From Sulfurimonas sp. (GTDB lineage Bacteria; Campylobacterota; Campylobacteria; Campylobacterales; Sulfurimonadaceae): a DNA stretch of 64,000 nt. Positions 854-33,908 of the stretch are shown here, one piece after another (the first letter of the stretch is position 1; every line of letters starts with the position of its first letter). The position numbers were made by a program, and so were the translations under genes. The notes under the pieces were generated by a model. It saw nothing but the letters and a program-made list of their open reading frames with translations. It did not search any database and had not been told where the DNA came from. The DNA lies in the NCBI RefSeq assembly GCF_026196735.1, contig NZ_JAPHUF010000021.1:6744-70743 (forward strand). Reading direction: 5' to 3'.

Positions 854-929
854 AGCATCAAGATGCGTGAGCCTTACGCTGAGAAAAACCAAGCGTTAGC
901 GTAAACAAAGGAATTACTTTCTTTGTTGT
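854..929 (+). repeat. Dispersed 76-nt structured intergenic repeat, copy 1
   Basis: Ungapped 61/76 match to 33233..33308; identical blocks AGCATCAAGATGCG and ACCAAGCGTTAGCGTA; terminal 10-bp stem with TTAC loop. Confidence 0.85.
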
Positions 930-984
930 GATTAATAAATAGGAGGGTTTCCTTCGTTTTATGTAATAAAATAAGGGTAAATTA

Positions 985-32473: not shown

Positions 32474-33232
32474 ATGAACTATTTTGCTAAAAGAATTATC
32501 CCTTGTCTAGATGTTAAAGATGGTCGTGTTGTAAAAGGGGTAAACTTTGTCGGGCTTAGAGATGCCGGTGATCCTGTTGAAGTTGCAAAGAGATACAACC
32601 AAGAGGGTGCGGATGAACTTACTTTTTTGGATATTACAGCTTCAAGCGATAACCGTGATACAATTGTAGATATCGTAGCTCAAGTGGCGAAAGAAGTTTT
32701 TATACCTCTTACAGTCGGTGGCGGCATTAGAAAGCTTGATGACATATATAAACTCTTAAATGTAGGCTGTGACAAAGTAAGCGTTAACTCTGCAGCGATA
32801 AAAAGACCCGAGCTAATAGACGAGGGTGCAAAACGCTTTGGTTCACAGTGTATTGTCACTGCGATTGATGTTAAAAAAACCGGTGACAGATACAATGTTT
32901 ACTTAAATGGCGGACGAGTTGACACCGGTATAGATGCCGTAGAATGGGCTAAAGAAGTCGTAGAAAGAGGAAGCGGTGAAATACTTCTGACTTCAATGGA
33001 TGCAGATGGTACAAAAGCAGGGTTTGAGCTAAATATTACTCAGCAGATAAGTAGAGCTGTAAATGTTCCCGTTATCGCAAGTGGCGGAGCAGGGACAATG
33101 CAACATATTAAAGAAGCCTTTGAACACGGTGCCGATGCTGCACTTGCCGCGAGTATTTTTCACTATAAAGAGATAGATATTATGGATTTAAAACATTATC
33201 TTCATGACAACAACATACCTGTAAGACTTTAG
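32474..33232 (+). CDS. hisF: Imidazole glycerol phosphate synthase cyclase subunit
   Basis: [36 protein letters not shown] and ALAASIFH motifs. Confidence 0.97.
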
Positions 33233-33308
33233 AGCATCAAGATGCGAGGGCTCTCTGCCGAAGAGAACCAAGCGTTAGCGTAGATAAAGGAATTACTTCC
33301 TTTATCGT
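33233..33308 (+). repeat. Dispersed 76-nt structured intergenic repeat, copy 2
   Basis: 61/76 ungapped identity to 854..929; perfect stem GATAAAGGAA-TTAC-TTCCTTTATC. Confidence 0.85.
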
Positions 33309-33362
33309 TAGAAAAGGGATAAATGGTTCCCTTAAATTTATAAAATAAATTAAAGGAGAAAT

Positions 33363-33908
33363 ATGATTATTTGCGCCGGAAATAATGAAACTTTTGATTT
33401 TGCACAACCAACAGGGGTTGGCTTAATCGAAACAGCAATGAACCTTACAAGACTTTGTCTCTTTGACAAACCTGAGTTTTTACTGTTTGTCGGTTCTGCA
33501 GGTAGTTATGGCAGTTCACAAATATTTGACATTGTTGAGTCAAAAACAGCTTCAAATATTGAACTTGGATTTTTAAATAATGACGCTTACACTCCTTTGG
33601 ATAATGTAATTTCCACTAACATAGATAGCCAAAAAAAAGATGTTATAGTCAATTCTTCGAACTATGTTTCCACAAATGAGGAGCTAACAAAAAAGTTTTT
33701 AAAACTTGGTGTAGGCATAGAAAACATGGAATTTTTCGCGGTTTTGAAAATAGCGCAAGAGTTTGATATTCCTGCTGGGGGTGTATTTTGTATAACTAAC
33801 TATACTAACAAAGATGCTCATGATGATTTTATGAAAAATCATGAAAAGGCAAAAGAACTTTTAACTCTACATGTTAAAAAAAGAATCAAGGAATTGACAG
33901 CAAAATGA
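33363..33908 (+). CDS. Purine nucleoside phosphorylase/MTA nucleosidase family protein
   Basis: GVG, GSAGS, ENMEFFAV and CITNY motifs; position before rlmN is typical of Campylobacterota. Confidence 0.75.
   Translation: MIICAGNNETFDFAQPTGVGLIETAMNLTRLCLFDKPEFLLFVGSAGSYGSSQIFDIVESKTASNIELGFLNNDAYTPLDNVISTNIDSQKKDVIVNSSNYVSTNEELTKKFLKLGVGIENMEFFAVLKIAQEFDIPAGGVFCITNYTNKDAHDDFMKNHEKAKELLTLHVKKRIKELTAK

Follow-up and report, generated by a model that had tools for sequence, protein, structure and literature searches.

What kind of element places two near-copies of one structured sequence directly behind the stop codons of genes as unlike as frr and hisF? The DNA concerned is a stretch of 64,000 nucleotides (nt) from Sulfurimonas sp., hereafter the window (RefSeq contig NZ_JAPHUF010000021.1; C10:6744-70743 in an assembly of 2.19 Mb and 25 contigs), in which two related intergenic sequences occupy the frr-pyrE spacer (copy 1) and the spacer between hisF and a nucleosidase-like gene (copy 2). 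A first-pass annotation, made from the sequence alone, had offered three readings: a REP/MITE-like mobile repeat, an element of mRNA processing or stability, or an uncatalogued cis-regulatory RNA. Both window copies are insertions, and they are probably resident members of a non-autonomous, modular family of mobile elements of the Campylobacterales that is absent from Rfam.

The description of the two copies stands in nearly every respect. Positions 854-929 and 33233-33308 align without gaps, with 61 of 76 nt identical. Copy 1 begins 1 nt past the frr stop codon TAA (850-852) and copy 2 at 0 nt past the hisF stop codon TAG (33230-33232), both on the sense strand and flanked by co-directional open reading frames (ORFs). 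The 3' stem reads AACAAAGGAA-TTAC-TTTCTTTGTT in copy 1 and GATAAAGGAA-TTAC-TTCCTTTATC in copy 2, and all five differences within it are neutral for pairing, comprising two compensatory pairs (A-T to G-C and C-G to T-A) and one change from G.T to G-C. The hairpin GCATC-AA-GATGC and the stretch ACCAAGCGTTAGCGTA are the same in both copies. The likeness continues past 929 and 33308 to a total of about 130 nt, up to the next start codon, and includes a GG..CC hairpin. An alternative GCGTGA/TTACGC stem, also proposed at the 5' end, can be drawn in copy 1 only; the conserved pairing there is that of RGC with GCY, which forms a pseudoknot with the second of the three hairpins, here named P1 to P3 from the 5' end.

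Repetition and insertion at orthologous junctions

Searches of the whole assembly with nhmmer and BLAST recovered about 10 more full-length copies and several partial ones. Two covariance models were built, R1 from 6 copies and R2 from 41, of which R1 gives 16 matches in this genome and R2 gives two in the window, copies 1 and 2 only. Their resemblance is not due to chance: under a covariance model trained on other copies they reach 84 and 94 bits (E about 1e-17 to 1e-19). In total the genome holds about 28-30 family members of two types: type A, with 10 copies including both in the window, and type B, with at least 18 found by a motif-plus-hairpin scan. That scan required at least 10 base pairs (bp) in the stem, 3-4 nt in the loop (more in one copy, which carries a nested hairpin) and an upstream CTTTAGT/AGCGG context, strict criteria adopted since a looser regular-expression scan for the GTAG-hairpin module returned mostly false positives.

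The mobile repeat, the first-listed of the three readings, is borne out by presence and absence of the element at orthologous junctions, a polymorphism characteristic of MITEs (miniature transposable elements with inverted repeats). The pyrE locus was taken from 30 genomes of the same genus, 28 of which have frr and pyrE on one contig. The spacer measures 2-9 nt in about 20 of these 28 (e.g., ...GTT TAA TG ATG...), 132 nt in the present genome and 128 nt in G014, and the latter two carry the element. The two genomes whose Frr is most similar (86-89% identity) have an empty site, and it is the whole 132 nt that relatives are missing. Between hisF and the next gene at least 20 same-genus genomes, the closest relative among them (TAAA followed directly by ATG), have a spacer of 0-13 nt, against 133 nt here; three genomes, the present one, G045 and G020, are occupied. 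In the reverse comparison, at least 10 copies found in relatives occupy junctions at which the orthologous genes of this genome abut. Two further genomes (G011 and G004; L210 and L228) have about 630 nt, resembling an extra small gene, at the same hisF junction, a further sign that this junction accepts insertions.

The same junctions have been struck repeatedly, in both orientations and by both element types. The frr-pyrE junction holds a sense copy in the present genome and G014 and an antisense copy in G047. The nifS-nifU junction is empty (17-60 nt) in about 17 of 29 genomes and is occupied by type A in sense in five, type B in sense in two, type B in antisense in one and a decayed copy in one. 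A junction at C7:450030, empty in this genome, is occupied in three species, once in sense and twice in antisense. Such recurrence could reflect a target preference (just past TAA or TAG, in A-rich sequence before a Shine-Dalgarno sequence) or a strong filter of tolerance, two causes that are not separable here. The left junctions consist of TAA or TAG stop codons and A-rich sequence, then the element, with no fixed motif in common.

The age of the insertions appears to differ between lineages. Copies within this genome share a median identity of 61% and a maximum of 81%, and those of the 3-Mb genomes described below are up to 96% identical to one another, which suggests recent copying. At the hisF junction the inserts of G045 and G020 differ at 5 of 132 positions, while fourfold-degenerate sites in the flanking genes differ by 54% (hisF) and 55% (downstream gene) and the flanking coding DNA is about 80% identical. 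Between the present genome and G020, at the same species distance (58% at fourfold sites), 15 of 76 core positions differ, and constraint alone therefore cannot explain the near-identity of the G045 and G020 inserts. That insert either is younger than the species split or was laterally exchanged. Copy 1 and its counterpart in G014 are nearly identical in their 5' halves and diverged in their 3' halves, with compensatory changes, a pattern that looks like a recombination mosaic.

The family is widespread within one order. In a first sample, 27 of 41 relatives carried the element, among them 21 of 24 same-genus genomes (1-18 copies each), and it was found in 5 of 16 other genera. Model R2 then matched 101 of 301 Campylobacterales genomes in 29 of 89 genera, with 1 to 46 copies each; copy numbers in two complete genomes, of 3.18 and 3.03 Mb, are 36 and 46, respectively. 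In a phylum-wide draw of 251 genomes all those with matches were labelled as the same order. An exact-pattern scan of named genomes, too strict for measuring distribution, gave 10 loci (Sulfuricurvum, Sulfurimonas, metagenome-assembled genomes (MAGs) of the Sulfurimonadaceae, and three MAG contigs that are probably mis-binned). There were zero matches among phage records and one among plasmid records, on the Sulfurovum mangrovi replicon NZ_CP087125.1 (RefSeq), where no feature is annotated beneath the match.

Orientation is biased with respect to transcription. Among 105 aligned copies, with flanks called from ORFs, 50 lie in sense and 16 in antisense between co-directional genes, 10 lie between divergent genes and 4 between convergent genes, counts that are not fully independent in that some copies are orthologous. 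A purely replication-linked strand bias, as expected of IS200/IS605-type transposition, was considered and rejected: the complete genome with 36 copies has 20 on the plus and 16 on the minus strand, with no replichore pattern.

The neighbouring genes follow no common theme. Flanking genes in this genome include frr/pyrE, hisF/nucleosidase-like, nifS/nifU, tpiA/fabI, nusG/rplK, nadB/guaA, rimP/ribD, uvrB/dedA, pyrH/spoT, flagellar genes and nuoN, and downstream genes of other copies (pgpA, nifU, fabI, rplK, guaA, ribD, flgE, dedA and others) share no functional class. A riboswitch or leader controlling pyrE and the nucleosidase-like gene had some appeal, since a structured element is followed by a terminator-like hairpin and a ribosome-binding site and both downstream genes in the window touch nucleotide metabolism. 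Such control is of negligible probability and was ruled out because the neighbours of all copies in this genome are unrelated; in addition, the genes downstream of other copies are unrelated, the same junctions lack the element in most relatives and some copies are antisense. With these unrelated housekeeping genes as neighbours, the cis-regulatory RNA that had been proposed is not supported as a gene-specific element.

The sequence matched no known family, as first supposed. Rfam 15, whose families include twister, pistol, hatchet, hammerhead, HDV-like and riboswitch models, gave zero matches at gathering thresholds over the whole window, and with E up to 10 three different copies gave unrelated matches of 12-22 bits only, none recurring. 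Literature searches by sequence words and by genus and repeat terms found no account of the family. The first-pass annotation had held that its reading would suffer from a known family, a lack of covariation or a lack of orientation bias; the copies are biased in orientation, belong to no family found in these searches and, as described next, covary strongly.

A core with predicted pseudoknots on interchangeable flanks

The type-A core consists, in order, of P1 (palindromic, its sequence variable), G-R-G-C, P2 (4-5 bp, loop GCYGA), the stretch AAC-YWAGY-GTTARCG-TAG, P3 and CGT. P3 is a 10-bp hairpin whose apex is frequently GGAATTACTTCC or GGGCTTTGCTC. Type B, the shorter of the two, has AGCTTTAGT in place of GRGC and P2, is otherwise unchanged, and is without the first pseudoknot. 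Four members outside the window (C7:414917-415020, C7:389706-389802, C7:303358-303458 and C7:154919) contain, in a strand of P2 or in the loop of P3, a nested hairpin of about 20 nt (GYGCCCC-N3-5-GGGTA), which is either a minute secondary insertion or an expansion segment that is tolerated.

In Sulfurimonas the core is followed by a 3' module (module 2) made up of a hairpin of the type (A)TGAAGG-GTTT-CCTTCA, a T-run, an AT hairpin TTTTATGAAATAAAAT and AAGGA about 8 nt upstream of ATG. A near-identical module trails copies at differing loci and in differing Sulfurimonas species. At frr-pyrE and at hisF and its neighbour there is no room for a native ribosome-binding site and the module supplies one; at nifS-nifU the native AAAGGAAAATATT is kept downstream of the insert. 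Two copies without module 2 (L041 and L032) have in its stead a second, diverged copy of the old junction, with about 15 nt duplicated. The 3-Mb genomes carry the same core between other hairpins, in a composite that starts with TAGAGTTCTTGC and finishes with GCAAGAACTCTA; the core is therefore constant and the flanks are genus-specific. In G217, G250 and G053 (L117-L132) this composite has TA at both ends, and it looks like a TA-targeting MITE backbone with the core as cargo.

Some copies are joined head to head. In the nifS-nifU spacer of G021 (L179) a mixed doublet is made of a type-B body in antisense and a type-A body in sense, with a single P1 palindrome common to the two, and in the nifS-nifU copy of the present genome the B half is reduced to a 16-nt remnant (GCTAAGGCGACTAAAG). 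A doublet with one common palindromic P1 also occurs in G202 (L115/L116; G202:C1:762793-762934 and three more loci with identical scores). It adjoins sequence that we recognised by eye as the 5' end of 23S ribosomal RNA (rRNA), and the four loci are presumably rRNA operons.

The fold was assessed in alignment A7, which holds the 105 copies from about 50 genomes and in which strand and register are fixed by the asymmetric unpaired consensus. Pairs were counted for the three hairpins and for three extra helices spotted by eye. Overall, 96.7% of pair cells are paired, against 72% when shuffled and at most 54% with slid partners; two-sided changes occur in 24 of 27 pairs, and covariation scores 0.704, compared with 0.224 for shuffled and no more than 0.126 for slid alignments. 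P1 is 98.3% paired with two-sided changes in all 5 of its pairs, and P3 has two-sided changes in all 10 pairs with 96.4% of cells paired. This strong covariation bears out the earlier suggestion that selection acts on structure.

The extra helices are equally consistent. The R of GRGC and the Y of the GCYGA loop form G-C in 63 copies and A-U in 41 and are unpaired in none; within the window, copy 1 has GAGC...GCTGA (A..T) and copy 2 has GGGC...GCCGA (G..C). The Y of AGYG and the R of TARCG form C-G in 58 copies, U-A in 42 and U.G in 5, again with none unpaired. In the second small pseudoknot both helices are 100% paired, AC facing GT in all copies, and in type B this AC/GT stem covaries freely (GCC/GGC, CGCC/GGCG, AGCC/GGCT, GAC/GTC). 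The first pair of P2 does not form in 34 of 104 copies, which would give the one-nucleotide linker needed by an H-type pseudoknot. Because each extra helix crosses a neighbouring helix, the core is predicted to form either two H-type pseudoknots or two pairs of mutually exclusive states. G.U-type pairs number 100 and A.C-type pairs 35 (29 of the 35 being C.A); since G.U outnumbers A.C, the modelled strand is the folding strand. The unusually intricate, knot-like predicted fold hints at a role beyond that of selfish DNA. The features of the two window copies are collected in Table 1.

Table 1. Positions in the window of the parts of copies 1 and 2
Feature	Position	Strand	Details
Copy 1, type-A core, frr-pyrE spacer	854..930	+	model R2 84.2 bits, E 4.6e-18
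Copy 1, P1 palindromic hairpin GCATC-AA-GATGC	855..866	+	pair counts in 105 copies
Copy 1, pseudoknot domain	870..887	+	AGC (870-872) with GCT (878-880); loop GCTGA
Copy 1, P2	TTAC (874-877) with GAAA (883-886)	+	one A.A mismatch
Copy 1, second small pseudoknot	888..903	+	AC (888-889)/GT (895-896) crosses GC (893-894)/GC (899-900)
Copy 1, GTA(A) after second pseudoknot			GTAG in most family copies
Copy 1, P3, 10-bp hairpin, loop TTAC	904..927	+	then tail GTG (928-930)
Copy 1, module 2	931..984	+	GGAGGGTTTCCTTC hairpin (942-955), then T-run
Copy 1, module 2, AT hairpin TTTTAT-GTA-ATAAAA	957-971	+	
Copy 1, module 2, Shine-Dalgarno AAGGG	973-977	+	pyrE ATG at 985
Copy 2, type-A core, spacer between hisF and 181-aa nucleosidase-like gene	33233..33309	+	model R2 93.8 bits, E 2.6e-20
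Copy 2, P1 hairpin GCATC-AA-GATGC	33234..33245	+	sequence and pair counts
Copy 2, pseudoknot domain	33249..33266	+	GGC (33249-51) with GCC (33257-59); loop GCCGA
Copy 2, P2	TCTCT (33252-56) with AGAGA (33262-66)	+	present in minimum-free-energy fold too
Copy 2, second small pseudoknot	33267..33283	+	AC (33267-68)/GT (33274-75); GC (33272-73)/GC (33278-79)
Copy 2, GTAG	33280-33283	+	directly 3' of second pseudoknot
Copy 2, P3, 10-bp hairpin GATAAAGGAA-TTAC-TTCCTTTATC	33283..33306	+	then tail GTT (33307-09)
Copy 2, module 2	33310..33362	+	AAGGGA/TCCCTT hairpin (33314-33333); predicted fold
Copy 2, module 2, AT hairpin AATTTAT-AAA-ATAAATT	33335-33351	+	
Copy 2, module 2, Shine-Dalgarno AAAGGAG	33352-33358	+	ATG at 33363

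Module 2 of copy 1 contains one terminator-like site, against 0.1 expected. The 181-amino-acid (aa) gene after hisF (33363-33908) matches futalosine hydrolase and MTA/SAH nucleosidase models weakly (37 bits; cut-off 124.7), and its function is uncertain.

Mode of spread and possible roles of the core

A mobile element of this build would operate as follows. The conserved unit of about 76 nt would comprise P1, an H-type pseudoknot (GRGC paired into the GCYGA loop of P2), a miniature pseudoknot (AAC-YWAGY-GTTARCG), a GTAG-tagged P3 and a CGT tail, and in Sulfurimonas it would travel with the 3' module of two hairpins ending at a Shine-Dalgarno sequence. Insertion would take place after the stop codon of one gene and ahead of the ribosome-binding site or start codon of its downstream neighbour, and the element would be co-transcribed with the operon, mostly in sense. 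The 3' module would permit translation of the downstream gene, which would start from the Shine-Dalgarno sequence at the 3' end of the element or from a retained native one. Copying would depend on an enzyme acting in trans, with the folded top strand as its recognition target in the form of either single-stranded DNA or RNA. Recombination may in addition carry occupied alleles from one species to another.

One candidate for such an enzyme is the RAYT-like Y1 transposase of the genome, in which case the family would be an ordinary REP/REPIN system with the GTAG-tagged P3 hairpin as substrate. The consensus of the 105 copies reads ...CGTAg before a 10-bp stem, the g being the first stem base, with a 3-nt tail beyond; GTAG at the 5' foot of the hairpin, a REP feature, is thus present in the consensus and in copy 2, with GTAA in copy 1. 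Head-to-head doublets exist, and the genome encodes one Y1 protein (C20:38898-39677, 259 aa, the sole Y1 gene), which scores 79.9 bits against a cut-off of 80 as a 'REP-associated tyrosine transposase'. GTAG repeats are reported from Sulfurovum sp. NBC37-1 (Di Nocera et al., 2013; PMC3733652). We nevertheless consider this system very unlikely. The Y1 gene of this genome is bracketed by a different repeat, CCCCAGGGGTTGAATCTYCACTTTT, in only three copies confined to that locus (C20:37361-39710, outside the window), and the 1.5-kb surroundings of 30 Y1 genes in relatives are free of the element, so that the RAYT link raised in the first-pass annotation was not found. Of the 27 genomes with the element 15 have Y1 genes, as do 5 of the 14 that lack it; four genomes holding 13, 12, 18 and 7 copies have no Y1 match (these are draft assemblies), and three complete genomes have their Y1 gene at a long distance from all copies. 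Inverted doublets, the main form of a REPIN, are limited to a handful of head-to-head pairs (G017, G020, G027, G202), and singletons dominate. The link to RAYT was rejected on the flanks of the Y1 gene in this genome, the 30 Y1 loci and the co-occurrence across genomes.

A different account holds that the element serves its host as an intercistronic RNA module, the core being kept for its action on operon mRNA and mobility explaining its arrival only. It could act as a processing site, or it could block exonucleases working 5'-3' (RNase J) or 3'-5' and thereby uncouple neighbouring cistrons in their stability. Folding specific to the top strand, with G.U exceeding A.C, and the sense bias of 50:16 are in keeping with this, as are the compensatory changes of P2 at nifS-nifU across species (TCTCT/AGAGA, TTCCT/AGGAA, TCCAC/GTGGA), the equivalence of GGGC..GCCGA at the hisF site to GAGC..GCTGA elsewhere, and the occurrence of one core on differing flanking modules in differing genera. 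The core also differs by 20% where fourfold sites differ by 58%, but such slow divergence is also explicable by recent arrival or gene conversion. Most genomes of the same genus are without the element at the same junctions, and a quarter of the copies between co-directional genes are antisense, and a host-serving module is on balance rather improbable.

It is also conceivable, though doubtful, that the double-pseudoknot core (GRGC-P2-GCYGA and AAC-YWAGY-GTTARCG-TAG-P3) is an autonomous functional RNA hitch-hiking on mobile backbones that differ between genera. If so, the core may represent a small self-cleaving ribozyme of a new kind, or else a module for processing or for blocking nucleases, by which insertion into an operon becomes harmless, and selection would preserve the fold and not the mobile backbone. 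The ribozyme, taken by itself as a new class that cuts the polycistronic transcript at the junction, would be of suitable size (about 45-76 nt), with two pseudoknots in perfect covariation and invariant junction nucleotides, and it would be multi-copy, scattered and without link to gene function. Variable hairpins around a conserved core are the pattern by which twister, pistol and hatchet were recognised. Most new motifs of such appearance, however, prove not to be ribozymes, the core has no likeness to any Rfam ribozyme family even with E up to 10, and type-B copies persist without the first pseudoknot; a self-cleaving activity accordingly seems highly improbable.

Several observations weigh against the preferred reading of a mobile family. 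The alignments were fitted to the model, by which the pairing counts are somewhat favoured. Conservation of about 30 unpaired nt and two pseudoknots over several bacterial families exceeds the known needs of REP or MITE ends and fits a functional RNA at least equally well. A mobilising enzyme was not found, and no parent insertion sequence (IS) was seen in the 1.5-kb flanks of the 30 Y1 genes. The copies in this genome are old, so that mobility in this lineage is historical and not demonstrated, and repeat occupancy of junctions could in part be lateral spread of an occupied allele in place of target choice. Comparison of the window copies with empty sites, finally, shows no terminal inverted repeats and no short target-site duplication, and none was seen in the Sulfurimonas copies.

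Relation to known repeat systems

Small structured intergenic repeats such as REP, BIME, BOX, ERIC and Correia are known mostly from Gammaproteobacteria, Betaproteobacteria and Firmicutes, and to our knowledge the copying mode of many of them is still unknown. The present family adds a well-defined case from the environmentally dominant, sulfur-oxidising and organohalide-respiring Campylobacterales and is set apart from described families by its pseudoknotted, highly conserved core, its interchangeable flanks and the lack of a RAYT link. It is unusual for a pseudoknotted core to keep about 30 near-invariant nt over several bacterial families and to appear on flanks that differ between genera. 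Unusual too is that the element inserts where translationally close genes lie 0-10 nt apart, that a ribosome-binding site is supplied or kept at its 3' end and that the same junctions are reoccupied. The covariance model gives annotators the means to mark a feature that is at present unannotated, as in NZ_CP087125.1, and the compact fold of RNA or single-stranded DNA can be tested for a partner protein or for catalysis.

One likeness in outline is to the GTAG REPs and REPINs of E. coli and Pseudomonas. Features in common are a hairpin in intergenic DNA, marked at its 5' foot by GTAG and on the opposite side by a short conserved tail; compensatory changes in the stem, with G.T pairs that suggest a transcribed strand; a position mainly between co-directional or convergent genes near stop codons; and the occurrence of some head-to-head doublets. 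The hairpin with its GTAG tag and 3-nt tail likewise resembles the GTAG REP class (Di Nocera et al., 2013; PMC3733652), a catalogue that may include part of this family. In contrast to GTAG REPs, the hairpin here makes up only the 3' third of a 76-nt unit, which also contains two pseudoknots and a palindrome apart from it; copies number tens per genome, not hundreds, single copies prevail, none of them flanks a RAYT gene and the presence of RAYT genes does not track the element.

In modularity the family recalls BOX of Streptococcus pneumoniae and the BIMEs of E. coli, which are mosaic intergenic repeats; BOX, like the present family, has no known transposase. Interchangeable modules (P1, the type-A or type-B body, module 2 and nested hairpins), transcribed spacers and predicted folding in mRNA are common to all three. 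The likeness is one of architecture, with no relation in sequence expected, and here, unlike in BOX and BIMEs, the core is pseudoknotted and is kept across several bacterial families while the flanking modules change.

MITEs that target TA, such as the Correia elements of Neisseria (reviewed in PMC10969869), are similar in being non-autonomous and 100-150 bp long, in the polymorphism of their insertions between relatives, in co-transcription and in their capacity to give expression signals to a neighbouring gene. The composite of the 3-Mb genomes also resembles them in its inverted termini of 9-12 nt (TAGAGTTCT...AGAACTCTA), with TA at its start and end. Sulfurimonas copies, those of the window included, differ in being without terminal inverted repeats or a detectable duplication, and the conserved part is internal.

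Palindrome-associated transposable elements (PATEs) are derived from IS200/IS605. Like the Sulfurimonas copies described here, they have neither terminal inverted repeats nor target duplications and carry strand-specific hairpins, next to which sequence pairs with a distant short sequence. In the present family, by contrast, no parent IS with these ends was found near Y1 genes, the complete genome with 36 copies shows no replichore-linked strand bias and the left junction has no conserved tetranucleotide.

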